A DNA stretch of 64,000 nt from contig JBFWVL010000005.1 of the NCBI GenBank assembly GCA_050246755.1, positions 128,001 through 192,000 of the forward strand. The letters run 5' to 3'. The notes beneath the pieces are model-generated. The model ran no database searches and was not told the origin of the DNA. It was given only the letters and a program-made list of their open reading frames with translations. The translations under genes were made by a program, and so were the position numbers. Shown here piece after piece: positions 44,301-61,182 of the stretch. The stretch comes from Bacteriovoracia bacterium (GTDB lineage Bacteria > Bdellovibrionota > UBA1018 > CAIPTA01). The first letter of the stretch is position 1, and each line of letters opens with the position of its first letter.

Positions 44301-44352
44301 CCATCACAGCAATCGAAAGCGGAACATCGTTTTGGGTCTTGGCAGTGTTCAA
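41299..44352 (-). CDS. TraD/VirD4 coupling protein fused to a C-terminal TraU-like Cys-rich domain
   Basis: N-terminal TMs, GSIGSGKT, IIDEYQ and ATQS; then a signal-like segment, SYYVPQTFIEVW and WGTFYPRYG (TraU-like). Confidence 0.8.
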   Translation of the reverse strand: MNTAKTQNDVPLSIAVMAFVVVAAGYVYLNFLRFEPAKMLVVEELLQQHGAFWWWSVVAFACNLSFLGIFLKRSVGLERQGSKLQILQGKAERWAITRAEILAAIFSAVAYLGAKRSVVVDLAPFFLRLISANATSLAEVGLSANLAGAFYFVCRMILRLAGSLRFNLSDTHKLERPVQESGDMVLGTTPGALEAVEDKDREEWVTIPSRGVHGGVFISGSIGSGKTQGTILRYLRQLLAEPKGPPSILAIDPKGTFLREAENMIRRLGLGDRIVRLSLKGNVSFNPVFMENPLQDSKFVALAEMVRCAAVNFMGKSSDSPFWDVSSSHLIRNTIAYCSAVHGYFTLLDLYRTIVRAAKNNLADDLRKVLKEKNFTQEEAFNIGCAIEYFENEYSQLEDRVRTGIVATSTAFVNQFQEFAASRIFCPRKEHLSIHSMEDFVRSGKILLFDIQQPGLARSMGTFIKLHYEQAVLNLLSELKEKNMPVTSALIIDEYQDVVTCGGGGTLGDDSFMAKARESKPAVIVATQSLSSLMNTVGRERPALELVQNFRTRVACHSSDLETIKMFQALAGKEDVESQTHSFSETAQSAKLNLLAGGFDSKNSSLNEAVSRGTRREDILTGKEFSRLRTFEAFAQVFDGIETKFLKLYLKPDFLKAVNTKHETVLEMLRVTKKGGFVAWLKSFSRNSRAVAASLLLAGNVQAAGIPNVCSVASSPAFSSCLELAVGGCTCGYPPHPCALISYYVPQTFIEVWPEAKTSYFTAIPGAAAQLSKVTPMPFGAEADDDTQSFQARTIAVPFASMTFKLMPAGGTRNEKMCFDGMSEDFGSHWNTGKGDLTQPLFLAWSLSPKACLLAGAATSISGTPGSSYSSDSAMCGTPMPNIGVLPPSSHPACNGWGTFYPRYGTYTGPASMAGALMIASRIKSLSAEVLHTMPSGPDEKWQMIYPQSSSCFREGQNIGLLETIKNSRETMRLASGKLKGYLFVIWNRTTACKEMPTAVQAQAAALAIPAACAGAQ

Positions 44353-44366
44353 TCAAATTCCTTTCT

Positions 44367-44411
44367 AAAAAACCCACCTCGGAGGCCGGGGGAAACTGCC
44401 CCCGAGGTGGG
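44367..44411 (-). terminator. Intrinsic terminator between the lipoprotein gene and traD
   Basis: Minus strand CCCACCTCGG…CCGAGGTGGG followed by TTTTTT. Confidence 0.7.
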
Positions 44412-44431
44412 AAACACAGGAGGAAGAAAGA

Positions 44432-45445
44432 TCAGCGGTAGGTATCGGTCAGGTCGTCGGTAATAAGATCGCTAGGATAGAACTTCATCGAGACGGACTT
44501 TCCCATCATCGGAAGCGAATACGCCTTATCATTCGTGAACACAGTGAGATCACGAGTGAAGCGAAGAGTAGCCTCGTCATCGCCGAATCCCAGGTTCAGA
44601 ACGCCGTTGTACAGTTTGAGCGAACCGTTCACTCGGCTCCAGTAACCCGTGTCGATAATGTACGTCGTTACGAATCCCACGGTTGGCGCAGCTCCTTGCG
44701 CCACGATCGCGTATGAGCCGTCATTCTGAAGAATGAGGCGCATGTTCTTGATGAAGAATCCGTTGACGTAAATCTGCTGGTCTGAGTAGAGAGCGTTCAG
44801 TTGGATCGTCGAGCGGTCCGCACGCGCTTGAAACTTCTGGAACTCTCCAAGAGTGTCTTCCGGATTCGGGCACGTCTCACGCTCAGACTTGATCGCCGAA
44901 GTAGACCAAACCATGTGGCCCATAACCATGCGTCCACCAAGACCAGGGCTCATCATATCCTTCTTGTAAAGGATGTTCGCCTGAATCCGCTTATCGACCT
45001 CTCGACCGACAATCTCCATTACGTCGCCGAGAACGAGCTTCCCGTTCACTTGAGAGTAGTTTCCGGACACCACGCGCGATTTCATTTTCTTGTAGGCGTA
45101 ACCGCTGTCGGTGTACTTCAGGATGTATTTCTCGGTAATCTCCACTTCGAAACGCTTGTTCGGATAGAGCAGAATTCGCGAATCGACCATCACGTCCTGG
45201 CCGTCTCGCTGACCGATCACCACGTCGTCGGCAGTCAGGAGCTTGAAATAGAATCCTTGCTGTCCGCAGACTCCGCTCGTGTCGTAGAGGAAGCGGTTGT
45301 AGTCGAATGCTACGACGGGCTTCGGTTGATTCCCGGAATCGTCCGGCACGCCGACGCCACCGACGGTCTCGCTGGATTCGACTCTACCTGAGCACGCTGC
45401 GAGGGTGAGGGCCATCATCAAGAGGGCTGTGATCTTGAACTTCAT
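44432..45445 (-). CDS. Beta-rich lipoprotein at the head of the tra region
   Basis: Lipobox LAAC; two similar beta-rich halves. Confidence 0.75.
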   Translation of the reverse strand: MKFKITALLMMALTLAACSGRVESSETVGGVGVPDDSGNQPKPVVAFDYNRFLYDTSGVCGQQGFYFKLLTADDVVIGQRDGQDVMVDSRILLYPNKRFEVEITEKYILKYTDSGYAYKKMKSRVVSGNYSQVNGKLVLGDVMEIVGREVDKRIQANILYKKDMMSPGLGGRMVMGHMVWSTSAIKSERETCPNPEDTLGEFQKFQARADRSTIQLNALYSDQQIYVNGFFIKNMRLILQNDGSYAIVAQGAAPTVGFVTTYIIDTGYWSRVNGSLKLYNGVLNLGFGDDEATLRFTRDLTVFTNDKAYSLPMMGKSVSMKFYPSDLITDDLTDTYR

Positions 45446-45594
45446 ATCAGTTGTTCCTTTCAGATTCGTTGTTGTTGAAAAATGCCTTCAAACAAATCAT
45501 CGCGCGCACAAGGCGCACCGTTTGGCGCACGAGTGAGCGATTGCGCTGGCGCTCGGCGTCCGAAATCTTGTCGAGGACCCTTTGGAGTTGCGTC

Positions 45595-45852
45595 TCAATC
45601 GCCTGATCCATCGCGCGCCTCCTTTTGCTTCCTCGGCCCCGCGAAGCGCTCTGGACTCATGTAGCTTTTCTTGCGGGGCCAGTCTTCGACCCCTTGAAAG
45701 CGGCCGTCGTGGAAGATGAACCGGAAGCTGCCGAAGAGAAGGCCGCTGCCGGTTTCACGCGTATGCTGCGCCTGAAGCCGAGCGGCGGCCTCTTCCAGAA
45801 TTCGCGAATCTGGAATTTGGGCGAGCGTCGTGGAATCGTGTTTTGAATCCAT
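45595..45852 (-). CDS. Small protein, DUF2292/YezD-like motif
   Basis: AAGGAG RBS before ATG 45852; FGSFRFIFHDGRFQGVE. Confidence 0.55.
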   Translation of the reverse strand: MDSKHDSTTLAQIPDSRILEEAAARLQAQHTRETGSGLLFGSFRFIFHDGRFQGVEDWPRKKSYMSPERFAGPRKQKEARDGSGD

Positions 45853-46040
45853 ATTCAAACTCCTTGTCGGGCGAGCATCTGTTCGAGAACTCCGATTTCA
45901 AACGCAAGCTCACGGTTTGCAGCCAATTCCTTTACCGAGATCATTCCGTACCATTTGCGAAACTCGCGCTTCAGCACCGCCAAAGCAGATCGCAGACAGT
46001 AGTTAGAAAACCTTTTCGACTTGCTGTTCATAAGCGCACC

Positions 46041-46247
46041 TCAGAAATGACCGATAAGTCGCATCGCCTTGACACGATTTTGTTCGATATATTCCTGCTC
46101 AGGGGGCGCCGTAAAAATTGCGGTCAGGAGCCACCCAATCGGCCTCCAAACAGCAACGATCACCACTTTCACAGTCCTGGCTATCGCCTTCACTTCCAGG
46201 TACAGATTCGGTCGGTTCTGAACTACGAACGGTAGAATCTCTTGCAT
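46041..46247 (-). CDS. Small hypothetical protein (68 aa)
   Basis: AAGGAG RBS; follows the zinc-ribbon gene. Confidence 0.6.
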   Translation of the reverse strand: MQEILPFVVQNRPNLYLEVKAIARTVKVVIVAVWRPIGWLLTAIFTAPPEQEYIEQNRVKAMRLIGHF

Positions 46248-46266
46248 GACTATCTCCTTGAGTTTG

Positions 46267-46488
46267 TTAAACAGCGGCTCCGAGCGCGTATTCTTTCTCT
46301 CTGGGAAGAATCTCGCTCACGATTGATTTTGGTTTCACGGTCTTGAGAGCTGCGAGTGCCCAATCGGGAACAGCGCAGAGCTCTTCGGAGTGGGTCTCGT
46401 CATAGTTGCAGTTCACACAAAAGGCGTGAGTGCTGAATCTTTCCAAACCACGCTCACCACAACGGGGGCACATACAGAACTTGTTCAT
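46267..46488 (-). CDS. Small zinc-ribbon protein
   Basis: GAGGAG RBS; CPRC…CVNC. Confidence 0.7.
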   Translation of the reverse strand: MNKFCMCPRCGERGLERFSTHAFCVNCNYDETHSEELCAVPDWALAALKTVKPKSIVSEILPREKEYALGAAV

Positions 46489-46545
46489 GGGAATCTCCTC
46501 TCTCTGAGAGGAAGGTTTCCAGTTGCTCCTCTCACAAATATAAAT

Positions 46546-46561
46546 TGCAAGAAGATGCCCG
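46546..46561 (-). promoter_or_regulatory. Putative sigma54 -24/-12 promoter facing the transfer region
   Basis: Minus strand C-GG-GCATCTTCTT-GC-A (GG-N10-GC, TTGCA); the -24 element is imperfect. Confidence 0.5.
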
Positions 46562-46634
46562 AAATGGTCACAGCAGATAAATAGTGGGATTGCTGAAGGA
46601 ATCCGTAATCTCGGAAAAAACGAACTTTCTTAAA

Positions 46635-46757
46635 TGGTCTATCTAAATAGACCCGAGTCTTTTGAAATAGACCCGCGCCAGATTTTCTGGCTCAGGTCTT
46701 CGCTGCTGCGATCTGGATAAAGGGATCTTAGAGAAATGAGTCTACAAAAACAGACTC
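46635..46757. promoter_or_regulatory. Three copies of the GAGTCT-N8-AGACYC palindrome (candidate enhancer sites)
   Basis: TGGTCTATCTAAATAGACCC 46635-46654, GAGTCTTTTGAAATAGACCC 46655-46674, GAGTCTACAAAAACAGACTC 46738-46757. Confidence 0.75.
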
Positions 46758-46773
46758 GGGGTACGCGAACGCG

Positions 46774-47802
46774 TTAGCGTGCTGCGGAACTGAATGTCCT
46801 GCCGCCGAGAGACGCGGAAACTTCGCTTCCTCGAACTTGAACGGAGAAATCCGAATTGGATAGGGAGCATCCTTTGTCATTACTCAATAGCTTCGCAATG
46901 TAGAGGAAGCCTGTGGGCATCAGCGACGCGATTCGCCCTGAATTTAAAAGCTCCGAGACTAAAGACGCTTCACGGGCCGCGCCCTTCTCGAAAACAGCCG
47001 GAAGAGTCACGGGCAAGTAGTTGTCGTGCTGGTCTGAATAGGCATGAACCTGCGCTTCACCTACGAACTTAAAGAAATAGGGAACGTCACCTCGTCCGAG
47101 TTGCTCGACCTCGGAATCAAAAAGCGGAATTTCGGGTGGCTTCTGAAAAGCTAAGCGGTAGTGGATTGTATCTCTTAAGATATGGCGAATCGGAATCTTC
47201 TTGAACGTAGCTTGCTGGTCTTCGAACACGCGCTGTATCCCCGCAAGGTTCGAAGTGATGCACGAAAGTACGTCATAGTAACCGCGAAGAACAATCTCGA
47301 TTTGCTCAGAAGAAACAATCGCAAGGCTCAATATTGACGAAGCACCGCAGAGGTCGGCGTCGACTTCCTTAAACGGCAGTAAAAGCGTCTCATGCGGAAG
47401 CAGCAAGCGGGAAAGAACCACTTCAGCATCAACGACTTGAATGTGCGTCTCCGTCTTTACCACGTTATTTCTGTGCAAGTCGCGGATTCCGAAAACATAG
47501 CAGTATCCGAGGAGCACACCGAGACTGTACAAATGGGAGCCTGTACTTGGACCCATAGACGCGCGCACTTCCCGGGAAGACCCCTTGAAGTCAGCGCCCA
47601 TCTCTATTTCGAGATTGAAAATCGTCTGCGCAGGGGAAGCTGAGAACGTCGAATTTTTGAAGAAAAATGAGAGTGGACTGTCCTTACCAAAGAACAGCCA
47701 CTCCCAATAGATTGGGCGAGGTTTCTGAAAGATCATTTCAGAACCCCGTCCTATCTTTTGGACCGATTGTCCAAAATTATGGAAATCAGCCTCGAACTTC
47801 AT
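46774..47802 (-). CDS. Stand-alone minimal LanM-type dehydratase/kinase (DUF4135), no cyclase domain
   Basis: QKPR, DLHRNN, VDAE, RHILRDT and EQLGRGDVPYF match LanM dehydratase-domain motifs. Confidence 0.85.
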   Translation of the reverse strand: MKFEADFHNFGQSVQKIGRGSEMIFQKPRPIYWEWLFFGKDSPLSFFFKNSTFSASPAQTIFNLEIEMGADFKGSSREVRASMGPSTGSHLYSLGVLLGYCYVFGIRDLHRNNVVKTETHIQVVDAEVVLSRLLLPHETLLLPFKEVDADLCGASSILSLAIVSSEQIEIVLRGYYDVLSCITSNLAGIQRVFEDQQATFKKIPIRHILRDTIHYRLAFQKPPEIPLFDSEVEQLGRGDVPYFFKFVGEAQVHAYSDQHDNYLPVTLPAVFEKGAAREASLVSELLNSGRIASLMPTGFLYIAKLLSNDKGCSLSNSDFSVQVRGSEVSASLGGRTFSSAAR

Positions 47803-47808
47803 TGGCAG

Positions 47809-47889
47809 TTAGTTTGAGCTACTGCCAGAGATGTAAGAGTCTGCTTCGGCCTCAAGTGCCGCCAGATTAATTACGATTTGCTCTTGCAT
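47809..47889 (-). CDS. Unannotated 26-aa RiPP precursor peptide MQEQIVINLAALEAEADSYISGSSSN
   Basis: AAAGGAG RBS; TAA at 47809-47811, 6 nt before the DUF4135 ATG; acidic leader and Ser-rich C-terminus. Confidence 0.8.
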   Translation of the reverse strand: MQEQIVINLAALEAEADSYISGSSSN

Positions 47890-47910
47890 GGTCTCTCCTT
47901 TCTTTCTTGT

Positions 47911-49704
47911 TTAGATAACACCCAGAAAGGAAGCCTTTTCAGGCTGCCCCCCACTAATAACCGGTACAATTCCTAAATAGTCTTTCGACAGCCAACGCAC
48001 TCCGAGGCGGTTTGTCCGACTTCGTACTTCAGCGTTTTCCGCCATGCCCGAAATTAAGATACTTTCAAAAGACAGGCCAAATCTCTCGATCAAATCGAGT
48101 CCGCTCGCGTCCTCATCCTTCAAATCACAATCGAACAGATAAAGTCTTTCGCCGAATTCTCCATGACCATTGGCTTCAATCCAATTGGTGAACGCCTCCA
48201 CTGAGGAGAGGTGAACTACTTCTGAAGGTATGGTTCCGAGCTCAGATAGCCTTCGCTGCCAGAGCGAATGAATCAGCGAGTCGTCATCTACAATGACAAC
48301 CTTCCCCTTGGCGGGAAGTTCAACGCAGTCCAGGAAGAGGTCTACTTTCCTAGAAAGTGGAATTCTCACCGCGACAGTTGTTCCTTCACCGATGGAAGAC
48401 TCAATTTGAATTGAGCCTCCAACCTTTTGCAGAACTTCTTTCGCATGGGTGAGCCCAATGCCGTTGCCGTGAGGTTTGCCAAAAGTAATCCTCTCGCTAA
48501 GAAGTTTCGAAAGAACTTCCTGCGGAATTCCTGTTCCATTGTCCTTAAAACGTATTTCCAAAGTCTCTTCGACTTTAGTTCCCGCTATGGTAATTCGTCC
48601 GCCTGTCCCAATGGCCTCGAAAGCATTGTCCAGGATCGTTGCGAACACCGTTTCGAGATCGCCGAGTGTCATGGCGCAAAATGAACCGAAGAACGCAGAT
48701 TCGTTTACGAACTCAACAGACGCTCGGAGGCTGGCGTACTGCGCCCGCTTTGAATCAGAAACGGTTTTGATTGTAGATAAAATGTGAATCGGCTCTTGGG
48801 TGGAAATCGATTCCGCCAAAACATTCGCGGCGGAGCTGCGATTCAACAAGCTGCCCGAAACGTCCTTTAAAGATGCAACGCAATCATTTAGGCTACGCTT
48901 GTCCTTCAACGAAAGATTCGGGATTTCATTGATTCTTAGCTGGAGAGTCGCAATCACGCCCTTAATAGCGTGTGCAACTTGCTCAGCCAGAGCCAAACGC
49001 AACTTATCCATTCCGACTGTTGCTAGATTCCTTTCCAGAACGACAATCTGCTTTAGTAACGTGGAAATCGAAGTAGTCAGCTCCTCAATCTCAAGAATTT
49101 GCGAGCGAGCGACTGGAGGCTCCTGTGCATGAGCAGAGTCAGGAAGCCCTTTTGCTACAAATTTGAGCCACTGAATTCGATTTTCGAGCGGTCCAATTAC
49201 CAGGTTGATGGTCATTCGTCTCATCCACCACATCAAAACCAGGAATACGCATCCAATGAACAGCGCAATCGAGGCAAGCAGTAGAACTCCGGATTGGATG
49301 AAACTCGCCAGGCTGACCTCTACGATGATCGAAAGCATCTGACCGGAGGGAAGGGGCGTTGTCTCTTCCACTCGCGAATGGAAAATTCCGAAGGGCTGCA
49401 ATTGCCCAGCATGGCTAATCAGCTTGCCGTCGAGTGAAATGTCCACGCGTAAATCCAAGTCTTGGGTCTCTTTCCACGTTTGTGTGAATCGCGCGATCTC
49501 CTTGTCGATCTCGTTCACGTTCTGGGAGTTCACGCCTGCTTCGGCCAACGCCGCAACATGATTGGTTACGAATCGCATTGCTTGGGTTTCTGTCTTCTTC
49601 AGCGAGTAAACGGAGTATGCGAGCAAAGCCAAGCCCGCAGCCCCAAGGCTCAGGGCCAGGCCGCGTTTTAGAATGCTGAGAATGACAGAGTAGATCGAGG
49701 TCAT
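47911..49704 (-). CDS. Hybrid sensor histidine kinase with C-terminal receiver domain
   Basis: Two TMs with a short periplasmic domain, QVAHAIKG H-box, DNAFEA, DNGTGI, GNGIGL; receiver IVDDD…LFD. Confidence 0.9.
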   Translation of the reverse strand: MTSIYSVILSILKRGLALSLGAAGLALLAYSVYSLKKTETQAMRFVTNHVAALAEAGVNSQNVNEIDKEIARFTQTWKETQDLDLRVDISLDGKLISHAGQLQPFGIFHSRVEETTPLPSGQMLSIIVEVSLASFIQSGVLLLASIALFIGCVFLVLMWWMRRMTINLVIGPLENRIQWLKFVAKGLPDSAHAQEPPVARSQILEIEELTTSISTLLKQIVVLERNLATVGMDKLRLALAEQVAHAIKGVIATLQLRINEIPNLSLKDKRSLNDCVASLKDVSGSLLNRSSAANVLAESISTQEPIHILSTIKTVSDSKRAQYASLRASVEFVNESAFFGSFCAMTLGDLETVFATILDNAFEAIGTGGRITIAGTKVEETLEIRFKDNGTGIPQEVLSKLLSERITFGKPHGNGIGLTHAKEVLQKVGGSIQIESSIGEGTTVAVRIPLSRKVDLFLDCVELPAKGKVVIVDDDSLIHSLWQRRLSELGTIPSEVVHLSSVEAFTNWIEANGHGEFGERLYLFDCDLKDEDASGLDLIERFGLSFESILISGMAENAEVRSRTNRLGVRWLSKDYLGIVPVISGGQPEKASFLGVI

Positions 49705-51227
49705 TCAACGCTCATTTCGACGCTTTCAAGAGGGAGCGTGTGAATCCCAAGCGGATGCGACGGCACTGACTTCACCCGACGGCTCCAAAGCCCAGAGGCT
49801 TCAGATCCGAAAAAAAGCGGAATCACAGTATTGTGTGCCAGAATTTTCTTTTGGATGTCCTTGTAGGCGTTCGCTCTGTCTTCTGGATCAACAATTTGAA
49901 TCACGTTGAGCAGAGCACTATCGACAGCTTTATCATCGACGTAAAAGTAATTAGATTCGTATTTGCCTTTGAAATAACCAAGGACAGAAAAGCCATCGGG
50001 GTAGTCCATCGCTTTTCGTGCGATGATAGCTTGGGACTTTTTCCCGAAGAGGCGCTGGAGTTTCTCACCCTTTGACAGTGCATTGAGCTTCACGGTTACG
50101 CCAAGTAGCGCCCACTTCTCTTTTAGAAAAAGTGCCGTCTTCTCTTCCAAGTTTGATGCGCCCTCGTAGTCCATCTCAATGACGATTGGCTTCGACGGTT
50201 TTGCCGACTTCATCGACTTCAACTGCTCCACGTCGGTTGCACTAAGTTCTCCGGCTAGACCAAATGGAATCAGGCCAAATGCCGCGCGATAAGACTGATT
50301 GCCAAGACTGCGAATGATTTCTGCGGAATCTACGGACGAATAGAGCGCGCGCCGCACATCACTCGGGACCTTCTCAGGATTGAAAACTACAAAAACTTCT
50401 CCCGCAAGTTCAGTAGCGGCGGCGGCCCAGCCCTGCTTTTGGAGTTTGGCCTTCTCGATATCGTCGATCCGATAGTGGTCGAGTGTATCAATCTTTTCAG
50501 CCAGCGCGAGCTCAACGGGTTTCTCGGCGACCATCGAATACGAAATGGATTTAGGAGGCAATGGGCTGTCCAGAGCGTCAGGTCTCCATTTCTCGATGGT
50601 GAGATTGGTCTTTGTTACTTCGCCGACGAGTTTGTAAGGGCCGCTAAACGCTCCCTTTGCTGAAATCTCCGGATTCTGTTTGAAGTCGTCAATCGGAAGG
50701 ATTGAGCAATCGGCTACAGCGAGTTGCTTCAGGAAAATGGCCGAGGGCTCGCTCAGTCGGAATTCGACAGTTTGATCGTCGATTGGAACCACTCCGAATT
50801 TTCCGATCTCCTGCTGGGTCTTGAATGCCCTCGCACCAGAAATGTAGTCAATGTCAGCGGCCATCGACGCTCCGACAAGAAACATCCTAGCGAACGTCAT
50901 TTGGACATTCTTGGCGGTGATCGGTTTTCCATCGGAAAATGTGGCTTTGCGTATTTTGAAGCGGTACGTCTTGTGATCTTCCGATTCAGTCCACGATTCC
51001 GCCAGGTCAGCGCGGATATCTCCGGTCGTGTTGTATCGGAGAAGCCCACGGTACAACTGAGTAGCCACAGCCATCGAGTACGCGTCTTCCATTTTCTGCG
51101 GATCGAGATTCATCGCCACCGCCGGCAAATGAATTCGCAACCCTTCAATCGCAGGAGTTTTAGATTTTGTGCAACTGACCATCACAGCTCCTAAAAGGAT
51201 GAATGCAACACCTCTACAAACGTGCAT
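49701..51227 (-). CDS. OppA/DppA-family (SBP_bac_5) peptide-binding lipoprotein, no ABC permease or ATPase nearby
   Basis: Lipobox VSC, LDP, LAESW, FSDGKPITA and SGPYKL. Confidence 0.9.
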   Translation of the reverse strand: MHVCRGVAFILLGAVMVSCTKSKTPAIEGLRIHLPAVAMNLDPQKMEDAYSMAVATQLYRGLLRYNTTGDIRADLAESWTESEDHKTYRFKIRKATFSDGKPITAKNVQMTFARMFLVGASMAADIDYISGARAFKTQQEIGKFGVVPIDDQTVEFRLSEPSAIFLKQLAVADCSILPIDDFKQNPEISAKGAFSGPYKLVGEVTKTNLTIEKWRPDALDSPLPPKSISYSMVAEKPVELALAEKIDTLDHYRIDDIEKAKLQKQGWAAAATELAGEVFVVFNPEKVPSDVRRALYSSVDSAEIIRSLGNQSYRAAFGLIPFGLAGELSATDVEQLKSMKSAKPSKPIVIEMDYEGASNLEEKTALFLKEKWALLGVTVKLNALSKGEKLQRLFGKKSQAIIARKAMDYPDGFSVLGYFKGKYESNYFYVDDKAVDSALLNVIQIVDPEDRANAYKDIQKKILAHNTVIPLFFGSEASGLWSRRVKSVPSHPLGIHTLPLESVEMSVE

Positions 51228-52392
51228 AACCAGCTCTTTGCTTCGCCTGAAATCTCGGCAATGTCATAAGGCCGAGTACGATCGCGCAAAAGGCTCCTCG
51301 CCACAGTCCATCGGCAAATACCGGGAGAACCTTGCTCCACGATCCCACCAGGAGTTCGCCGCTCGCAAGAATGACAACCATTTGAGTCATGCGCGCACTC
51401 GTGACTGCTCCCATCTTTTCCTGGGGTGTATCCATCTGAATGTGCGCTGAGATTCTATGAAGAATCAGCCAGTAAAACGTATCTTTGGAGAGAGCGAGAG
51501 CAACCGTTATCCAGCCCATGCCAGAAAAGTAGCCGAGCATGCCATAAGAGACCGCAAGCCCGATCCAAAGAGACGATGAACGCTCACTAAGGGAATTGGA
51601 CCGCTCGATATATCCGGCAAACCACACGGCGACTCCGTAGATACCAATTAGAAGTGCCATCCACTTTTGATCGTCGCCCACCAGACGAGCTGTGAAGGAG
51701 GTCGTTCCCATCATTGAAATGGCCAAGAGCAAATCTAAGACGGCAGCGCGACTATTGTATCTGTAGAAGTCGGCGAACTTCGCGAAGACACTCTCGGCAA
51801 ACGAAGCTGCTCGCTCAATCGTGGGCTCCGCAATTGGCAAGAAGAATACAATGATTCCATTTGCCGTGAATGTCGCGAGATCGAACCAGATCGCAGTTTC
51901 GAATGTCGAATACTTAATGATGGGCCACGCGCAAAGACCGGCGAAAAGTGTAGCTCCTTGAGTTGCCTTGTTGAACCAGATTGCGTGACTTGCATTCGAG
52001 GCATACGAAGTGTCTGCCAAGAGCTTCGTGATCTTCGCTTTGCTGCCTGCCTGGAACGAAACGATGGAAGTTTTGAGTAGACTGAAAGCAACGAGTAGCC
52101 AGTATCCGTGGTGGCCCTGTTCCCAGGCCCAAAGAATACCGAGTGAAGCCGCAGCCGCACCAAGTTCAGCTACAACGATGGTCAGCCGCGGAGAAATAGA
52201 ATCGGTAACATGCCCGAACAGGCCAGCAATGATTATGGGTACTAACCGCTGAAGACCTAGAATTAAACTGATGTGAAAAAGGTCAAAGCCCCCCTGAACC
52301 ATGAAGGCAACCAAGCAGATATTGAACGTGAAACTCCCAATGGAAGAAAGGAGCGTGCCCAAGTAAAACCAAGAGGCTAGGTTCATTTTCAT
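51214..52392 (-). CDS. MFS transporter, probable peptide exporter
   Basis: About 12 TMs, GHVTD motif A-like loop, QMDTPQEKMG. Confidence 0.85.
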   Translation of the reverse strand: MKMNLASWFYLGTLLSSIGSFTFNICLVAFMVQGGFDLFHISLILGLQRLVPIIIAGLFGHVTDSISPRLTIVVAELGAAAASLGILWAWEQGHHGYWLLVAFSLLKTSIVSFQAGSKAKITKLLADTSYASNASHAIWFNKATQGATLFAGLCAWPIIKYSTFETAIWFDLATFTANGIIVFFLPIAEPTIERAASFAESVFAKFADFYRYNSRAAVLDLLLAISMMGTTSFTARLVGDDQKWMALLIGIYGVAVWFAGYIERSNSLSERSSSLWIGLAVSYGMLGYFSGMGWITVALALSKDTFYWLILHRISAHIQMDTPQEKMGAVTSARMTQMVVILASGELLVGSWSKVLPVFADGLWRGAFCAIVLGLMTLPRFQAKQRAGYARL

Positions 52393-53870
52393 GATACTGC
52401 CTCCTCGGTCTCCGCAGACTCGCCGAGAAGACGTTTCTTTCTGTTGAAGTAAGCTGCCTTCGACATTCCGAGAAGCGTATAGAGGAATCTGTTATTCCCA
52501 TCGAAAAGCTTCAATCCGCTGGCTAGATACAAGCGTTCCATCCATTCGAGGGCCGACTGAAATTGCGCTGCGGAAACATCCTCCTTCGAGCGCGGAAGCA
52601 GTCCATCGGGAATGAAAATTAGCTGATCCGGCGAAACAGCATTCGGATCAAGGCCAAGGTGTTCAGGTTTCAACACGGGCCTGGAGGAACCCTTGATGTC
52701 AATGTAAGCGCGTTCAACCGCATTCTGAAGCTCTCGAATGTTCCCACGCCAAGGATATGCAGCGAGCACCTTGCGTGCGGGCACGGAAATCTTTCCCATT
52801 GGAAGTCGGCGCTTCAAAAACTCCTCGGCCAAATATTCGATGTCCTCTGGACGCTCTCTCAGCGCCGGGACGCGAAGGGAAATCTGATTGAGACGGTAGA
52901 AGAGGTCTTCTCTGAAACGTCCCTTTTTGATTTCGGCTTCCAGGTCTCGGTTTGTAGCCGCAATCACGCGCACATTCACGGTAACGGGCTTGATGGCACC
53001 CACTGGAGTAAAGGTTTGTTCTTGGAGAACTCGCAAAAGCTTAGCCTGCATTTCCAAGGGAACTTCACCGATCTCATCGAGAAAGATGTCACCACCGTCG
53101 GCAAGCTTGAATTGGCCCTGCTTCGCCTCTGATGCCCCGGTGAAGGCGCCTTTTGCGTGACCAAACAACTCACTCTCGAAAAGGTTCGCCGGGATCGCGG
53201 CGCAATTGACGGCAATGAATGGTCGCGAGGGATCGTCTTCTTGAAGGTTGAGATTCCTGGCTACTAGCTCTTTTCCGGTTCCGTTTTCTCCAGTGATAAG
53301 AACGTAGGAATGTGTTCCCTTCATTCTCAGGATGTCGCGACGAAGCTTCAAAGTAACTTCGGAAACGCCCAATATCTCGTATGAACGAACATGCGTTGCG
53401 AGCTTGGCCGTTAATTTCCGATTTTTCTCAAACTGCGTTTCGTTTTCCTGAATCAGAGTCCGATTTCGTCGAAGGATCGCAGCTTTCTCCAATACGTTTG
53501 CCACGCGAAATTTTAGGTTTGCTGCAAATTCATCCGAGCCTTTGATGACGAAATCGGCCGCGCCAGCCTTCATCGTTTCAATAATGGTTTCGGGCTGACT
53601 ATTTCCGGTCAACATCACGACAGGGAGCTCGGGCATTCGGCGCTTGAGGAGCTTCAAAAATTCCAGCCCTGAAATTTGAGGTAAACCAAAGTCGAGAAGA
53701 ACTAGATCGGGCCGGAACTGGCCGAGGACCCGCATCGCTTCAGTCGGCTCATGGACCGTCGATACCTCGTGCTCCTGGCGAAAAAGAGCTACAACGGACT
53801 CAGCGAAACGCTTGTCATCGTCTACGAGCAGAATCCTTAAAGCTGGTGTTCCTTCTGGGCTTTCCGGCAT
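52389..53870 (-). CDS. Sigma54-dependent (NtrC-family) response regulator
   Basis: Receiver LLVDDD/LLD, GENGTGKE, ESELFGH, GAFTGA, FREDLFYRL, WRGNIREL, C-terminal HTH. Confidence 0.95.
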   Translation of the reverse strand: MPESPEGTPALRILLVDDDKRFAESVVALFRQEHEVSTVHEPTEAMRVLGQFRPDLVLLDFGLPQISGLEFLKLLKRRMPELPVVMLTGNSQPETIIETMKAGAADFVIKGSDEFAANLKFRVANVLEKAAILRRNRTLIQENETQFEKNRKLTAKLATHVRSYEILGVSEVTLKLRRDILRMKGTHSYVLITGENGTGKELVARNLNLQEDDPSRPFIAVNCAAIPANLFESELFGHAKGAFTGASEAKQGQFKLADGGDIFLDEIGEVPLEMQAKLLRVLQEQTFTPVGAIKPVTVNVRVIAATNRDLEAEIKKGRFREDLFYRLNQISLRVPALRERPEDIEYLAEEFLKRRLPMGKISVPARKVLAAYPWRGNIRELQNAVERAYIDIKGSSRPVLKPEHLGLDPNAVSPDQLIFIPDGLLPRSKEDVSAAQFQSALEWMERLYLASGLKLFDGNNRFLYTLLGMSKAAYFNRKKRLLGESAETEEAVS

Positions 53871-53883
53871 AAGCCGGAGACAT

Positions 53884-53900
53884 AGCTAGGTTCATGCCAA
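53884..53900 (-). promoter_or_regulatory. Sigma54 -24/-12 promoter of the signalling operon
   Basis: Minus strand TTGGCATGAACCTAGCT fits TGGCACG-N4-TTGCW with exact GG-N10-GC spacing. Confidence 0.75.
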
Positions 53901-53983
53901 AACGGAGGGCTTTACTCAACTACCTAAAATTGCAGGAGAATGGCTCTGGCAGCGGCTCTCGGGTGATTTCGAGGTATCTAAAA

Positions 53984-54003
53984 GAGTCTATATAGATAGA
54001 CCC
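53984..54003. promoter_or_regulatory. Fourth copy of the GAGTCT-N8-AGACYC palindrome
   Basis: GAGTCTATATAGATAGACCC, about 85 bp upstream of the -24 element. Confidence 0.75.
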
Positions 54004-54090
54004 GATATGTAGAACTTTCACGAAACTGACCAATCGGTAGCAGATTGACCCCATATACAAGAACCGTTTCCCAAACAAATTCAGTAGGTC

Positions 54091-54504
54091 CTAACGGAAT
54101 ATGGCGAAGCTCGCTATCAGCTTGAGCAGATCAGCACATGCTCGGCCGCCGATCACAGCTAGGAAAATTTCAGCCCAACGGGGAAAGCGGAAGACCGGGA
54201 ATTCCAATTTCCAAGAATTGAATCCGTACCCACTTCTACGGTGGCCGGAAGCGATTACAGCTTGGGCGTCGATCATGACGAGTTGAGCTTGGTGCATCTT
54301 CTCGGGACCGTAGTGTTGAAAGAGCCGATATAGCTCGCGGCAGGGAATTTCGGACGGCTTTTTTTCAATGTCTAGGAGTCTCGCTTCGGAGATTCCGAGG
54401 GAAGCCGCAACTTGTCCCGCACTTTCTCTTCGCTGCGTTCGTGCGCTGTAAAGAAAGCGACCCAGCTTCCGATTCATCGTAGCCCTTACTAATTCTCTGT
54501 CCAT
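54091..54504 (-). CDS. XRE-family HTH protein with C-terminal hydrophobic segment
   Basis: AAGGAGG RBS before ATG 54504; LYSARTQRRESAGQVAASLGIS. Confidence 0.7.
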   Translation of the reverse strand: MDRELVRATMNRKLGRFLYSARTQRRESAGQVAASLGISEARLLDIEKKPSEIPCRELYRLFQHYGPEKMHQAQLVMIDAQAVIASGHRRSGYGFNSWKLEFPVFRFPRWAEIFLAVIGGRACADLLKLIASFAIFR

Positions 54505-54528
54505 CGTGCCTCCTTCAGCGATCACGCC

Positions 54529-54592
54529 GCATACGATCGTATGCACATTAGTTCAGAAAACCATCGAAAATCAAGTGCATACGATCATATGC
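54529..54592. promoter_or_regulatory. Twin 16-bp operators between divergent XRE genes
   Basis: GCATACGATCGTATGC (54529-54544, perfect palindrome) and GCATACGATCATATGC (54577-54592). Confidence 0.8.
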
Positions 54593-54605
54593 GCGATTTT
54601 CGGGG

Positions 54606-54854
54606 GTGCAGGTGGCAGAACGTGATTCATTAACCAGTGGCGAAAAAAAGCTACTGAAAGTATTTGGGACCCGCGTCAGAGCTATCAGGGAGCAACAGAA
54701 GAAGTCGGTGTACGACGTTACTGGTGACGACATGCCAATAAAGACTCGGCAACACTGGCAGATGATAGAGGCCGGGAAGAAGAACATTCAGCTCACAACA
54801 ATTTCAAAAATTGCTGAATCGCTGGAGATTTCTTCCGGTGAATTATTTAAGTAG
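54606..54854 (+). CDS. XRE/C-protein-like HTH regulator
   Basis: FGTRVRAIRE…IEAGKKNIQLTTISKIAESL. Confidence 0.85.
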   Translation: MQVAERDSLTSGEKKLLKVFGTRVRAIREQQKKSVYDVTGDDMPIKTRQHWQMIEAGKKNIQLTTISKIAESLEISSGELFK

Positions 54855-54882
54855 GGAACCTGGGCCTCGGAAGAGATGGTTG

Positions 54883-55953
54883 TTAGGGCAGGCTCTTCCC
54901 AAGGCGTTCGCACGCGGCGACCAATTCATTGGGAGTGGACTCGCTAGAGTACTTTACAATCCATTCACGGCGCTCATCCACCAGTTTTGACAGCTCACGG
55001 ATTTGGCTTTGTACATCTGGAACCGTTAGCCGATAGAATCCATGACTCTCACCTAAGACCTCCGCGATCACCTGTTCCATCTGAATTGCAAAACGAATTA
55101 AGTGCAGAGGCTCCTGGTGGTTTGCCAACTCCAAAATTATCTTCTGATTTGAACTTTTCTTTCTCGAAAACAGCTTTGTCAGAAATCCGCGTTCGCTCGG
55201 GTTTGTCATCGTCTTCAAATTCGATTCCATATTGAGGAACCATCGGCAACGAAGCTCCTTGAGCTGATGCTTCATCGCAAAGAGGTGATTCTTGTATTCA
55301 CCGCTATCTGGAGCCGCAAGCCTCTCCTTTAAGCTCTCGTAGATCGCCTCCAACTGCGCACTCAAATCGTTGCCCAGGAGCTCAATCTGCAAATCTACTT
55401 TCTTATCAATTCTCCCGATTTTTTTTGCATTGTCGTACCCCGAAATGATGTGAGCAGTTCCTACAATCAGTGCGCCGATATTCGCAATACGCGAGACGGC
55501 GCTTGGATCGATCTGCTTGGCCTGGGAAATAAACCTGCGACCGTTCTTGTCTACGGCGATTAGTAACTTTTCTCCGTTCTTCGTTACTAACTGAACTGCC
55601 GATTCCTGTTCAAGGAGTTGAGCCGTTGCACTTGGAAACCTCGCCAAGATGAGGTCACGCGCCTGCGCCGAATTGACAACTTCCAGGCCAACAATGAGAG
55701 CATCGGAGGCGCCGTCCGTTAAATGGGAATTCACCTCGCTCAATAGGCGGCCAGAAATTTGCTCACCAAATCTTGCAAAGTGAATCGCATCGCGAAAGCT
55801 AATGCCGGAAGTCGCACGGCTGTATGACCGAGCGAAAGAGCCTTCATCTGCGGAAGTAATCTCCGTCCGACGAGAACTTCTGGCGCGATAGCGTTTCCAA
55901 AATGCGATTGAAAGGGCGGCGCATACGGCGATCGCCGCCAACATCCAAATCAT
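54883..55953 (-). CDS. Membrane-anchored helical hypothetical protein
   Basis: N-terminal TM from ATG 55953; follows the SNF2 gene in the same direction. Confidence 0.6.
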   Translation of the reverse strand: MIWMLAAIAVCAALSIAFWKRYRARSSRRTEITSADEGSFARSYSRATSGISFRDAIHFARFGEQISGRLLSEVNSHLTDGASDALIVGLEVVNSAQARDLILARFPSATAQLLEQESAVQLVTKNGEKLLIAVDKNGRRFISQAKQIDPSAVSRIANIGALIVGTAHIISGYDNAKKIGRIDKKVDLQIELLGNDLSAQLEAIYESLKERLAAPDSGEYKNHLFAMKHQLKELRCRWFLNMESNLKTMTNPSERGFLTKLFSRKKSSNQKIILELANHQEPLHLIRFAIQMEQVIAEVLGESHGFYRLTVPDVQSQIRELSKLVDERREWIVKYSSESTPNELVAACERLGKSLP

Positions 55954-56011
55954 CTGTGCGCTCACACTCTGTATCAAGTTCGATCCCCATGTCTTATCGT
56001 CATTCAGTTGG

Positions 56012-59000
56012 TCAGACGATTTCAAACGACCCAAATGCAATTAGTTCCGGCTCTGAAGCAATGCTAGTTTTACTTTCCAGCGTAGCTATAAGCTTTTTCT
56101 CGCGGTCTCGGGAGTTCCTGCCAACTTCCGCCAGCTCTTCGTCGATCTTAAGTTGTTTGTCCTTCAGTTTGGAAATCTCAGAATTGATTTCGCTCTGAGC
56201 TTTGAGGGGCAATTTCCGCCGTTCCTTCTTCAGCTCCTCAATGCGCTTTTGGAGGTCGTCTTTCTCATATCTCTTCTGTCTTTCAAGGTCTTCAAAGAGG
56301 TGTTCGATTTTTTCCAATTCTTCATGATACAGCTCCTCCGTGTTTCCCATGAGGATTGCCTTTTGCCGTTCGACTTCCGTTTTTAGAAAATCACGGCAAT
56401 GGGTTCCAGTTGGAGGTGAACATGGTTTTTGGTCCATCTCGCTGCTGACGGTAATAAGCTTCGTAGCAAGTTCGATGTCGAGAGCCTGTTGCCCAATTAG
56501 AAAAATAGGAACTAGTACATCGAAAGACTCGATCCCGTTAATTCTGACTCGATGGAGTTCAAAAGATCCCTTCTGGCCGACGTATGGCTCTAGTAGGGAA
56601 ATCCGGTGACGGCCCGACATATTGAATTTGACGTGACCACTTAACACCGACTTCGGCACTAGGTCTCGAAATCCATTGTGTCCCGAGTGGATAAGCTGAC
56701 AATCGTCGCCACTTGTCTTTACAAATTTGTATAGAACTTCGGCTTCAAGCCCGCGGAAATTTTCTTTCAGCTTCAATTCCTGTCCGTCGTACTGCCTGGT
56801 GGACTCAGGCACTATGGAGAGCACACAGTCGCGAACCAGTGCCTGTTTTGCGTCTATGGCGTCCTTCGCCTTCTGGTGTACGTCTTTCAATCTCTTTTGA
56901 ACGTCTTCGTCAAATTCAGCCAGTAACTTTTCGCGGGCACCTCTTAACCGTTCATCGACGGCCTCGCGATTGTTCTCCATCATTTCGGCGAATTTTCGGT
57001 CGATCTCTTCGGGCGTCCGGCACGAAAGGTAAATCCCAAGGATTTCCTTTTCCACATCTGTACCAGATTGAATTGCCCCTAAGACTTCGTCTGATACACC
57101 GAATGCACCTTCGAAAAGATGGAATTTCTCGTCCAGCAATTCAAGAACACGTCTGTCTGCGTGGTTTCTTTTATTTACGAAATTCACAACCACCACGTCT
57201 AGTTTCTGTCCGTAACGATGACAGCGCCCGATTCGTTGCTCAATACGTTGTGGGTTCCAGGGAAGATCGTAGTTAATAATCAAGTTGCAGAATTGTAGAT
57301 TCAGTCCCTCGGCGCCGGCTTCAGTAGTAAGGAAGACTTTCTTGCTGTCCCTAAATTCATTCACGAGTCTTCGGCGGCTCTCTGCATCGCCGACGCTACC
57401 ATTGAAGAGGACAATATCGTTTTCAAGCGTAAGTCCCATTTGCTGAAGGACGTTGATGACATACTGCTGAGTCGTTTTGAATTCCGTAAAAATGACGGCT
57501 TTTTCCGGCCATCCTTCCGCTCTAGCTTTGCGGAACTGCTCTTCCAAGGCTTTCTTCAGCGCGTCGCCTTTGGTGTTCTCCCGAATCTTTTTCGTTAGGC
57601 AGATAAATTGTAGAACTTGTCTGGCTTCGATTAGAACCGTGTCATGAGACGGTCGTTGCGCAGAGAGATCGTCTCCCAAAGCTTCTTCAAGGTCATCTTC
57701 GTCATAGTTTTCGGAGATTTCCTCCTCTTCGCCGATCAAGTCTTCTAGTTCCGAAGGCGCGACCGATTCTCGCAGACCTTCGTAAGATTTCGGCCGCACG
57801 TTTTTGTAGAGGAGTTTCTCGAAGTCTTCGAGTTCGAGAGAACGCTTACCGTTATCAAGGGTCAGAGTTTTGCTTATTTCAGCCATGAGCTTCTTGTGAA
57901 GCTCACGGTCGTCGGCCTGAACTGCATAGAGAACGAACCGTTTGTAGATTCCGAGGAGACTATTCTTTAGAGCAAATGAAGAACTCGCCAGAAGTTTGCA
58001 GTAGATGAGCTTTAGCAGGTGGGAGGCCATCGGAGGAATACCCAGAATATCATCCCGAGTGAGGTAAGCCTCAAAATCCTTCCGCAGTTCTTCCTCTTCG
58101 TCGTCCGGATCAAATTCCAGCGTTATTGCGTGCCTCTGGGTGTATTTGATGAAGTCGCTGACATTTTTGCGAAGTTCTCTATGAAAGAACTTCTTCATTC
58201 GATACTTGAGTTCCGCAAGGCGCTCCTCGCGATCCTCGTCAGGAATTTTTTGAAAGGTGCGTTGAAAGCTCTCTTGAGTGCCGAGAATCGACTCCTCTAT
58301 GAAGGAGGTCAATCCATAGAGTTCCATCAAGTTGTTTTGCATCGGCGTCGCGGTCAAGAGGACTTTCTTGAAGGGCCGAATCGTTTCTCGAATTAGCTTT
58401 GCTCTCTGAGCCTGCTTTTTACCGGGCCGCCATACGTTTCTGAGCTTGTGCGCTTCATCGACCACGATCAAATCCCAAGCAATGCTCGCCAATTTTCCCG
58501 AATACTTATTAAAGAAGTGCTCATTCGTGATAACGATTTTTTCTTTCGCGTCGAGCGGAGATGGCTGTCCATTCTTCGTCGTTGCCTTGATTGACTGCGT
58601 GTCAATGATCCGGCTTTCCAGGCCAAAGAGATTCTGCAACTCATCTTGCCACTGATGGCGCAGTGATTTTGGCGCCACGATCAGGAATGAGCGTCTACCT
58701 TCTGCCCATAGCTGGCTGAGGACGAGTCCTGTTTCAATGGTTTTTCCAAGACCGACTTCATCAGCGAGAATAACTCCGCCAGCCAATGGATTTCGAAACG
58801 CAAAGGTAGCTGCCTCGACTTGGTGTGGGTTTAGATCGACTTTCGCTTCGATAATTGCTTGGTCCGTGGACTCACGGTCCCATTTTGGTTTTCGAAGCGT
58901 GAGGAGATTCATGTAGTAGAAAATCTGAAGTTCCGAGAGCCGATTATAGGCGGCAGCGCTGTCGCTCTTTGAATCTACGTTCCTCACGCTAGGCCACCCT

Positions 59001-60998: not shown

Positions 60999-61113
60999 CC
61001 GGTTAGTCCGCCTTAGCTGTAAGCCTTTGAATTCACTTAAGCTTATCGGTAGTGCCACGCTAAAGGTTTAGGCCCTACGACGCGTGCAATTTCATCAAAC
61101 GCTGTAGAACGAG

Positions 61114-61150: not shown

Positions 61151-61182
61151 ACGCCATCACTAACGAACTGGACGAAGGACAG

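Follow-up and report, generated by a model that had tools for sequence, protein, structure and literature searches.

A putative peptide-signalling module and its link to the transfer genes of conjugative elements in Bdellovibrionota

The DNA analyzed here is a stretch of 64,000 nucleotides (the window) of contig JBFWVL010000005.1 from the Bacteriovoracia bacterium assembly GCA_050246755.1, and the system in question is a six-gene minus-strand operon that lies directly upstream of the conjugation genes. On balance, we take this operon to encode a peptide-signalling module that is complete in itself and activates its own expression, and to which conjugative elements of Bdellovibrionota have connected their transfer (tra) genes. 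In the sequences compared, the six genes travel together, the gene for the response regulator (RR) is preceded by a palindrome and a -24/-12 promoter, and a locus-specific palindrome recurs in front of the tra genes. More tentatively, the module may represent an undescribed class of Gram-negative peptide pheromone, with a cyclase-less dehydratase, a Ser-Ser precursor, a readout by an OppA-like protein, a histidine kinase (HK) and sigma54, and enhancer palindromes that would time the tra genes. Each part comes from a known family; the novelty lies in how they are combined, in the phylum of the host, in the minimal enzyme and in the connection with conjugation. No description of such peptide/sigma54 control of conjugation was found in a search of the open-access literature, with subscription journals and supplements outside its scope.

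The operon comprises six tightly packed ORFs between 53870 and 46774, listed here in operon order and followed by the genes that lie downstream of it.

52389-53870, minus strand: NtrC-type sigma54-dependent RR, 493 aa (Pfam, NCBIfam)
51214-52392, minus strand: MFS transporter, proposed peptide exporter, 392 aa (MFS_1 2e-4, below cut-off)
49701-51227, minus strand: orphan family-5 (OppA-like) solute-binding lipoprotein (SBP), proposed signal receptor, 508 aa (SBP_bac_5 1.7e-35)
47911-49704, minus strand: hybrid sensor HK, 597 aa (HATPase_c, alignment of homologues)
47809-47889, minus strand: gene of a 26-aa precursor peptide with an AAGGAG ribosome-binding site (ORF list, cross-locus comparison)
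46774-47802, minus strand: stand-alone DUF4135 protein, 342 aa, LanM dehydratase domain only (Pfam and profile alignment)
46267-46488, minus strand: first tra-side gene, a 73-aa CxxC...CxxC zinc-ribbon protein (ORF list and tblastn)
24280-45445, minus strand: conjugation and integration genes (domain matches of the window proteins)

Successive ORFs of the operon overlap by 4, 14 and 4 nt and are then separated by gaps of 21 and 6 nt. A first-pass annotation of this DNA had described the same operon, in the order RR, MFS, SBP, HK, 26-aa peptide and enzyme, with co-oriented tra genes downstream, and both statements hold, since type IV secretion system (T4SS), relaxase and integrase families were found there. 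Its observations were thus partly confirmed, being sound except for a sigma54 promoter on the tra side. Its interpretation is partly supported: it passed both refuting conditions open to sequence analysis, since homologous clusters do carry the small ORF and are often joined to conjugation genes. Corrections concern what the enzyme is, how general the link to tra is, and by which mechanism and in which direction tra would be controlled.

In the proposed mechanism, the DUF4135 enzyme would phosphorylate, and most likely carry through to elimination, one or both of the conserved C-terminal serines of the precursor, giving a product that carries dehydroalanine or, less likely, phosphoserine. The trimmed peptide would leave the cytoplasm through the MFS protein and be bound by the lipoprotein, in the periplasm or outside the cell, which would then modulate the hybrid kinase, and the kinase would set the phosphorylation state of the RR. 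The RR would bind its own palindromes and, with sigma54, switch on its own operon in a positive loop; it would also act on the tra-side promoter, with activation as the somewhat likelier direction. Export by the MFS protein, binding by the SBP, sensing by the HK and phosphotransfer are proposed from gene content and by analogy with LuxP/LuxQ/LuxO, the chitin-oligosaccharide-binding protein (CBP) with ChiS, agr and nisin.

Conservation of the module was explored by a scan of species-representative genomes, which gave 34 related Bdellovibrionota loci (L001 to L034) that were sorted by tblastn with the window proteins. The complete co-oriented array RR-MFS-SBP-HK-gap-DUF4135 is present in 16 of the 34 (L001, L003, L007-L010, L014-L022, L033), and in 5 others the order is kept with the array cut by a contig end (L002, L005, L011, L013, L032). 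In 4 distant loci (L023-L026) the MFS-SBP-HK genes are divergent from the peptide-DUF4135 pair, and 9 are fragments or loci without these neighbours (L004, L006, L012, L027-L031, L034). The DUF4135 family is patchy, being found in 28 of 401 sampled genomes of the phylum and in 0 of the 7 other genomes of the window's family, a spread that fits horizontal movement. Linkage to conjugation was counted in the 19 canonical loci with at least 3 kb downstream, after L002, L004, L008 and L018 were dropped for too little sequence. Genes for conjugation lie downstream in 10 of these 19 (L001, L009, L011, L012, L015, L016, L019, L020, L022, L033).

Two modules in one genome occur as the pairs L007/L014 (genome G001), L001/L022 and L015/L033. 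The two peptides of G001 differ at 2 of 26 residues and its palindromes are of the same class, so cross-talk between them is possible; in the other two genomes the peptides differ in both and the palindrome classes in one. A decaying module is represented by L006, where a Y2-type transposase gene (7667-8905) has taken the place of the kinase gene's 5' part and of all that lay upstream of it, and the peptide and DUF4135 genes are intact.

The evidence for self-activation lies in the RR and in the region upstream of its gene, which holds two elements.

53984-54003, minus strand: upstream palindrome GGGTCTATCTATATAGACTC, proposed enhancer (upstream activating sequence, UAS) for the RR, starting 104 bp before the start of the -24/-12 16-mer
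53884-53899, minus strand: sigma54-type -24/-12 promoter TGGCATGAACCTAGCT, 0 mismatches to TGGCAY-N5-TWGCW

The RR shows the Pfam domains Response_reg, Sigma54_activat (1.2e-65) and AAA_lid_14, and a GAFTGA loop is present in its AAA+ domain. Its C-terminal helix-turn-helix is divergent, being seen by eye and in the alignment across loci, with no match to Pfam HTH_8. A receiver, an AAA+ domain with GAFTGA and a DNA-binding C-terminus place the protein in the NtrC family, and all NCBIfam equivalog models compared with it (AtoC, NtrC, LuxO and others) scored below their cut-offs, LuxO at 282.7 against 800. The genome contains rpoN (215 bits).

The palindrome GGGTCTATNTANATAGAC, with at most 2 mismatches, occurs in the window only at 53984-54003, 46635-46654 and 46657-46674, and 0 matches were obtained in 100 shuffles. 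Across the whole 3.55-Mb genome, its core with at most 1 mismatch was found only in the RR-side and tra-side intergenic regions, with 0 in the control. The presence of one 20-bp palindrome upstream of both the operon and the transfer region, as had been proposed, is therefore far beyond chance. The promoter TGGCATGAACCTAGCT alone is not beyond chance, with 4 window matches at up to 1 mismatch against 4.8 expected; it is convincing because it is conserved in relatives. All 14 relatives that hold the region upstream of the RR gene carry an equivalent site (TGGCAY-N5-TNGC), which with the window makes a sample of 15 loci. A generic consensus scan gave exactly one GG-N10-GC site in each of the 15 regions, matching 9-11 of 12 consensus positions, and in 15 of 15 the site starts 102-110 bp after the start of the 20-bp palindrome.

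A promoter matrix built from the RR-side sites, and circular for them, returned one strong site per locus except in L020, whose TTGCC-type site scored low. It found nothing comparable elsewhere in the loci or the window, and no clear site in the distant loci L023-L029. The end of the RR-side promoter lies a mere 14 nt upstream of the annotated ATG at 53870; either the mRNA would have almost no leader, or translation begins at a different codon. Given rpoN in the genome and the joint presence of palindrome and promoter in every one of the 15 loci, activation of the operon by its own regulator through sigma54 is well supported by these comparisons.

The same palindrome connects the module with the transfer genes, in a tra-side control region that contains the following elements.

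46738-46757, minus strand: palindrome copy 1, GAGTCTGTTTTTGTAGACTC, with 2 mismatches in 14 specified positions
46635-46674, minus strand: palindrome copies 2 and 3, mutually adjacent (pattern search)
46546-46561, minus strand: conserved TTGCA box, here also with GG-N10-GC spacing, CGGGCATCTTCTTGCA (cross-locus comparison)

By their half-sites the palindromes fall into four classes (AGTCT, AGTTCG, TGTCGCC and GTGTAATC). Nine tra-linked loci cover both the RR-side and the tra-side region (the window, L001, L009, L015, L016, L019, L020, L022, L033), and in all 9 a palindrome of the locus's own class, differing at no more than 2 of the 14 specified positions, recurs just upstream of the first tra-side gene. 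There are mostly 2-3 copies (range 1-3), two of them about 20 bp apart, and about 0.1 match per 20-kb locus is expected by chance according to our own arithmetic. L011, which is without the RR side, carries the sites of L009 on its tra side; L015 and L019 have an insertion of 1.4-2.9 kb with other genes behind the DUF4135 gene, and there the palindromes remain with the tra genes. In L017, two palindrome sites are followed by a gene for a DksA/TraR-type zinc-finger protein. In each of the 10 tra-side regions the proximal palindrome is followed by the sequence TTGCA, 100-104 bp on from the palindrome's start, against a background of 0.0013 per position.

The presumed recognition helix of the RR changes with the palindrome class, reading S-[KR]-A-x-[YF] with AGTCT, G-K-T-R-Y with AGTTCG and S-R-x-F-V-H with the other two classes, which fits the RR as the binding protein. 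From these comparisons, a regulatory wire from the module to the tra genes appears well supported.

The enzyme is the part of the module whose identity needs correction. The 342-aa protein matches Pfam DUF4135 (7.7e-13) over residues 92-132 only, and a profile of its family (23 members) matches CylM (5dzt, E 4e-6) and LicM2 (6st5). Residues D108, H110, N113 and D125 of the family align on CylM D347, H349, N352 and D364, R206 and T212 align on R506 and T512, and the conserved GDIPYF motif falls on the corresponding CylM motif. The N-terminal D6-x-H8 ... K27-P-R aligns with equal spacing on LicM2 DSH...KPR in a weak segment (1.7 bits). The aligned catalytic columns D6, H8, K27, D108, H110, N113, D125, R206 and T212 are invariant in the 23 sequences. 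In the CylM study (PMC4550811), K274, D347, H349, N352 and D364 are given as phosphorylation residues and D252, H254, R506 and T512 as phosphate-elimination residues. All nine are kept here, the N-terminal three on the strength of the weak LicM2 segment and its spacing. Since the full kinase-lyase site is kept, conversion of Ser to dehydroalanine is the most likely activity predicted for the enzyme, with phosphorylation alone as a fallback.

No LANC_like cyclase domain was matched in the 342-aa protein, the NCBIfam LanM model scored 32.7 against a cut-off of 304, and the protein begins at the P-loop, the N-terminal ~200-250 aa of LanM being absent. No fused relatives of 600-2000 aa were found at E <= 1e-5, which is weak evidence. 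A profile search of 1.84 billion representatives gave 272 matches at E <= 1e-30, and the best 150 of the 272 are all 151-423 aa long. At E <= 1e-3 the protein itself has 189 homologues; the 120 listed fall within 245-361 aa, and among the matches listed the sources that name an organism are Bdellovibrionota. The earlier designation as a LanM-type enzyme was thus overstated: lacking a cyclase domain, starting at the P-loop and having no longer fused form, the enzyme is, as judged from its alignments, a stand-alone LanM dehydratase domain and not a LanM. No description of short stand-alone DUF4135 proteins was found in the titles and abstracts of the open-access literature, with subscription journals and supplements outside the search.

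Directly before the enzyme gene lies the gene for its proposed substrate. The gap in front of the DUF4135 gene was searched in L001-L029 and L033 (30 loci), and a homologous small ORF of 23-28 codons behind a Shine-Dalgarno site was found in 26 of them, as expected for homologous clusters if the small ORF is part of the system. It starts with ATG in 24 loci and with GTG in L021 and L024; L027 and L028 hold only a doubtful 16-codon ORF, and no small ORF was found in this gap in L012 and L029. Identical peptides are shared by L007 and L008, and again by L005, L006 and L010, so that the 26 do not all count as independent cases. The N-terminal two thirds of the precursor are conserved (hydrophobic-x-I-[ND]-L-x-x-L-E-x-E); in the C-terminal part, x-S-S-x(1-3) often stands behind an aromatic residue and a pair of small residues (GG, AG, SG), and the Ser-Ser near the C-terminus is conserved.

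For close pairs of precursors, the proportions of synonymous and nonsynonymous differences (pS/pN) were 0.37/0.08, 0.18/0.00, 0.46/0.14 and 0.59/0.04; over all 136 pairs the averages (pS 0.70, pN 0.50) come out too high, because the comparison was made without gaps and suffers from register shifts. Judged by these values, the small ORF is a real gene under purifying selection. [quoted passage not shown] The predicted core probably has about 4-10 residues and is trimmed after the Gly-rich motif. The window's 26-aa peptide has no Cys, and in the precursors Cys stands at or near the C-terminus only in L013, L021, L022 and L024.

The precursors of these four loci (L013, L021, L022, L024) end in Ser-Ser-Cys(-Gly). 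A Cys beside a dehydrated Ser could add to it spontaneously or form another structure without a cyclase.

The remaining three proteins would make up the export and sensing arms. The MFS protein was placed among MFS_1/MFS_3 clusters by a protein-atlas feature search, and its identity within the module across loci is 45-65%. The lipoprotein scored below the cut-offs of the NCBIfam OppA, NikA and DppA models. Its SBP_bac_5 match, a lipobox Cys19 conserved in at least 90% of 13 homologues and the finding of no ABC permease or ATPase gene in the operon bear out its description as an orphan OppA-like lipoprotein. The HK has two transmembrane segments around a periplasmic part of ~100 aa, followed by the phosphotransfer and catalytic parts (DHp-CA) and a C-terminal receiver. 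H245 (the phospho-His), N360 and D388/G390/G392 are invariant in an alignment of 16 homologues, and D474, D525 and K574 of its C-terminus stand as in a receiver domain in the same alignment. The conserved phospho-His, the N and G boxes and this receiver-like C-terminus agree with the hybrid kinase that had been proposed. Mean pairwise distances across loci are 0.69 for the HK (the fastest), 0.63 for the enzyme and 0.50-0.52 for the RR, MFS protein and SBP.

Several results weigh against the reading of the operon as a signalling module that controls transfer, and they concern the tra-side promoter, the spread of the linkage and the signal path. On the tra side, GG-N10-GC spacing is kept in 2 of 10 regions (the window and L001). 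In the window, CGGGCATCTTCTTGCA at 46546-46561 is the only such site on the tra side, with a poor -24 and a perfect -12 element, and falls below the cut-off of 8 of 12 consensus positions; the promoter matrix scan of the tra-side regions gave no sigma54 site. Without a conserved sigma54 promoter, the tra side offers no obvious promoter for an enhancer-binding protein, and activation of tra is for this reason not established. The first-pass annotation had placed a -24/-12 promoter at both ends of the circuit and had the regulator activate tra: the promoter stands on the RR side (15 of 15 loci) and is weak on the tra side, and the proposed activation keeps the shared locus-specific palindromes (9 of 9) and loses the conserved tra-side promoter. 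Repression of tra, or the use of another sigma factor there, is possible. The agreement between helix and palindrome is partly shared ancestry and not independent evidence, because the classes are clades.

These results bear on an alternative of opposite logic, in which the activated RR represses tra through the 2-3 palindromes there and activates only its own sigma54 operon, so that an element-encoded peptide reports the density of carrier cells, like ICEBs1 PhrI in a "do not transfer among donors" sense. NtrC-type proteins that repress non-sigma54 promoters are known, and the peptide, encoded by the element itself, would mark donors. The tra side has multiple adjacent palindromes and no conserved -24/-12, and the canonical sigma54-type promoter is found on the RR side only. 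The geometry argues otherwise: palindromes 100-200 bp upstream of TTGCA at a fixed distance are arranged as an enhancer and not as an operator, and the TTGCA box has GG-N10-GC spacing in the window and L001. Nor was a sigma70-like promoter found to overlap the sites, a sigma70-type scan of 45400-48000 having given 0 promoter-like sites. We consider repression of this kind unlikely.

In the leader of the first tra-side gene (46489-46545) and in L001, L009, L011, L015, L016 and L019, a conserved GTGAGAGG follows the TTGCA box and is itself followed by an inverted repeat. The arms of this repeat co-change between loci (GAGAGG/CCTCTC, GAGAGC/GCTCTC, GGAGCAC/GTGCTCC), and the repeat may act as an operator or fold as a leader hairpin. 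For this leader, RNAalifold gave a weak and ambiguous structure (-6.15 kcal/mol) with a positive covariation term, and Rfam gave no match in 44000-55000 at E <= 1. In L009 (~8645-8660), L011, L015 and L019, a match to the IHF consensus, WATCAANNNNTTR, was seen by eye between the tra-side palindromes and TTGCA, and after it comes a second palindrome, TTGTGC-N5-GCACAA, which holds a perfect TGGCAC. The order enhancer, bend site and promoter is the usual sigma54 layout, yet the spacing from TGGCAC to TTGCA is 19-20 nt and not 10, and TGGCAC was therefore rejected as part of a sigma54 promoter in these four loci.

The linkage to transfer holds for the 10 loci named above and not for the other 9 of the 19 (L003, L005, L006, L007, L010, L013, L014, L017, L021). 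In these, tra genes were called absent when there was no tblastn match and no T4SS family in the ORFs scanned, which did not include every ORF. In G001, the exact palindrome occurs only before each RR gene, and matches with one mismatch are about as many as in the control (19 against 20). A loop whose sole visible output is itself can therefore exist. With about half of the loci lacking tra and G001 lacking a second target, the module is best described as self-contained and only sometimes wired to transfer.

Such closed-loop modules keep alive a reading in which the product is the point, namely that of an autoinduced bacteriocin-like RiPP cluster carried as cargo, with antagonism as its main role and the SBP as an immunity lipoprotein that sequesters the product. 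The gene content parallels the LanA, LanM, LanT, LanI and LanRK logic one for one. Half of the loci are without tra genes and G001 is without a target besides itself, which fits the product as output. Class II lanthipeptide clusters near DNA-uptake and phage-defence genes are reported in a 2025 survey (PMC12715929). The chemistry and the receptor speak against it: the core has only ~4-10 residues and is mostly without Cys, and with no cyclase no ring can form in most cores, and the lipoprotein is a full-size family-5 binding protein beside a kinase with a periplasmic sensor part. In addition, palindromes common to the module and the tra genes show regulatory use. We give this reading a small chance.

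The signal path also has gaps. No Hpt domain was found in the module, though a hybrid kinase normally needs an Hpt relay; with 5 Hpt matches elsewhere in the genome, a relay through the host is possible. No leader peptidase was found in the module either, and the genome has one C39 match elsewhere. The module would leave the passage of the peptide across the outer membrane unexplained, and LanM-like substrate recognition cannot be assumed for an enzyme in which the N-terminal part of LanM is absent. Partial Mantel tests, run over 14 loci with control for the distance of the RR AAA+ domain and of low power, did not detect the proposed co-variation of the peptide core with the SBP (r 0.12, p 0.27), nor co-variation between the core and the HK sensor (r 0.19, p 0.12). 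Co-variation of the core with the DUF4135 enzyme was weak (r 0.34, p 0.0125; 14 loci, low power).

The missing co-variation with the SBP and the HK sensor would suit a pair that senses a foreign ligand, such as prey- or cell-wall-derived peptides, with the small peptide in another role, for example as an intracellular or periplasmic modulator. Family-5 binding proteins, by their NCBIfam names, bind many peptides, nickel and opines. We think this improbable, given that even the distant, reoriented loci L023, L024 and L026 keep the precursor-enzyme pair with the MFS-SBP-HK trio, and that all genes belong to one autoregulated operon. That the palindromes are terminators or element-specific repeats in an accidental neighbourhood is very improbable: a pattern scan does list two of them as terminator-like hairpins, but 9 independent loci repeat the same position, the same spacing and the locus-specific co-variation, the palindrome is absent from the genome outside these sites, and the -24/-12 stands at a fixed distance in 15 of 15 loci.

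The proposed signalling module lies in a wider element. The conjugation block (24280-45445) includes genes for a lipoprotein, a type IV coupling protein (T4CP), a VirB11-like ATPase, TraE, TraK_C (TraK), TraB/TrbI, TraC and TraG_N, and further a NikA/MobC-like protein, a relaxase and a tyrosine integrase. The gene set of an integrative and conjugative element (ICE), with integrase, relaxase, coupling protein and mating-pair formation, stands together in one block, and by its gene families this region is a conjugative element with an integrase. Small ORFs and the lipoprotein gene lie between the zinc-ribbon ORF and the T4CP gene. The 73-aa zinc-ribbon protein has homologues at the equivalent place in L001, L009, L011, L012, L015 and L019 (tblastn). 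It gave no Pfam or NCBIfam match, and its similarity to the DksA/TraR-type protein of L017 did not reach significance (E 0.25). No tRNA genes were found in the window. Comparison of the DNA with 8 same-family genomes, which were too divergent (64-74% identity, scattered genes), did not give the ends of the element; its right end was not found within the window, and lies beyond it or was missed.

The 337-aa tra-region lipoprotein gene (44084-45100) has a 68%-identical DNA copy on another contig (C8:6697-7719), and a second, related conjugative element that lacks the signalling module may be present in this genome, where a single copy of the DUF4135 gene was found. Upstream of the module, 54091-64000 holds three ORFs without a family match, an SNF2-type helicase (1001 aa), a DUF2779 protein, a radical SAM protein and a TaqI-like specificity-domain protein, which are probably defence genes or cargo of the element. 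L015 and L019 have homologues of the 79-aa ORF at 54548-54787 beside the module, where they lie on the opposite strand. DUF4423 proteins, one with HTH_3, recur near these elements (window 16774-17586 and 21913-22737; L017 17365-18459). At 11421-11569 the window holds a repeat of ~145 bp, with 13 further near-full-length copies of 69-93% identity on 6 contigs of the genome, which looks like a MITE/REP-like element.

If the proposed circuit is right, it would be a concrete case of a conjugative element that couples transfer to a self-made signal, with the cis-elements already mapped, and the first RiPP-type, sigma54-dependent quorum control of conjugation. The four palindrome classes and the many peptide variants would provide natural material for specificity swaps, and pairs of palindrome and RR helix could serve as orthogonal sigma54 switches.

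Among known systems, the Vibrio LuxP/LuxQ-LuxU-LuxO relay joins a periplasmic binding protein and a hybrid HK, with output through an NtrC-type sigma54-dependent RR, and the module has the binding protein, the hybrid HK and the NtrC-type RR in common with it. It differs in that its proposed ligand is a ribosomal modified peptide and not autoinducer 2 (AI-2), that its binding protein is of family 5 and not LuxP-type, and that it contains no Hpt gene. Its RR is not an orthologue of LuxO (282.7 against the cut-off of 800), autoregulates, and has sites that precede tra genes and not genes for small RNAs. In Vibrio cholerae, the CBP, which is of family 5, is the co-sensor of the hybrid kinase ChiS. 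A family-5 binding protein with a hybrid HK is common to that system and the module; there, however, the ligand is a sugar, there is no precursor/enzyme pair and the genes are not on a mobile element.

Autoinduced lantibiotic loci, such as that of nisin with NisRK, hold an exporter and a two-component system in one locus, as does the module. The DUF4135 kinase-lyase core, the nine catalytic residues and the short precursor gene adjoining the enzyme gene are likewise those of CylM and LicM2. In contrast to class II lanthipeptide systems, the module is without a LanC-like cyclase and without the N-terminal ~200-250 aa, and most of its cores are without Cys, so that no lanthionine would form. It also differs from lantibiotic loci in having an MFS and not an ABC/C39 transporter and a sigma54 and not an OmpR-type RR, and in its Gram-negative host. 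A further parallel in chemistry is CcaM (LanMbC, dehydrazoles), which also uses a DUF4135 domain for dehydro-amino acids without lanthionine rings; unlike the module's enzyme, CcaM has ~1015 aa, needs its class III-type cyclase domain for activity and acts on azole-containing cores (PMC10676384). In the same study, the dehydrazole network was limited to DUF4135 proteins of at least 500 aa, excluding those below 500 aa (PMC10676384), and genome-mining pipelines can miss a RiPP class this small. The present module, if correctly read, would be such a class, very small and with the dehydratase domain alone.

Control of conjugation by peptides is known from Firmicutes, in pCF10 (PrgZ with cCF10/iCF10) and ICEBs1 (RapI-PhrI), and control by acyl-homoserine lactones (AHL) from Ti plasmids and ICEMlSymR7A. 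As in these four, the element here would encode the signal and/or an OppA-like lipoprotein and gate transfer on a density or neighbour signal. In pCF10 and ICEBs1, however, the peptides are imported and act on the cytoplasmic PrgX and RapI, whereas here a membrane kinase and a sigma54 activator would respond to a peptide that is enzymatically modified, in a Gram-negative host.

Peptide quorum sensing is regarded as a Gram-positive trait, and a conserved Gram-negative peptide circuit whose receptor is a binding protein plus a hybrid kinase would, if true, widen that picture. A comparable overall design is that of the staphylococcal agr system, in which precursor, maturation enzyme, HK and RR stand together in one positively autoregulated operon, as they appear to do in the module. 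The two differ in their chemistry, AgrB forming a thiolactone where the module would use LanM-type dehydration, and in their readout, agr having no binding protein and a LytTR regulator where the module has an OppA-like lipoprotein and a sigma54 activator.

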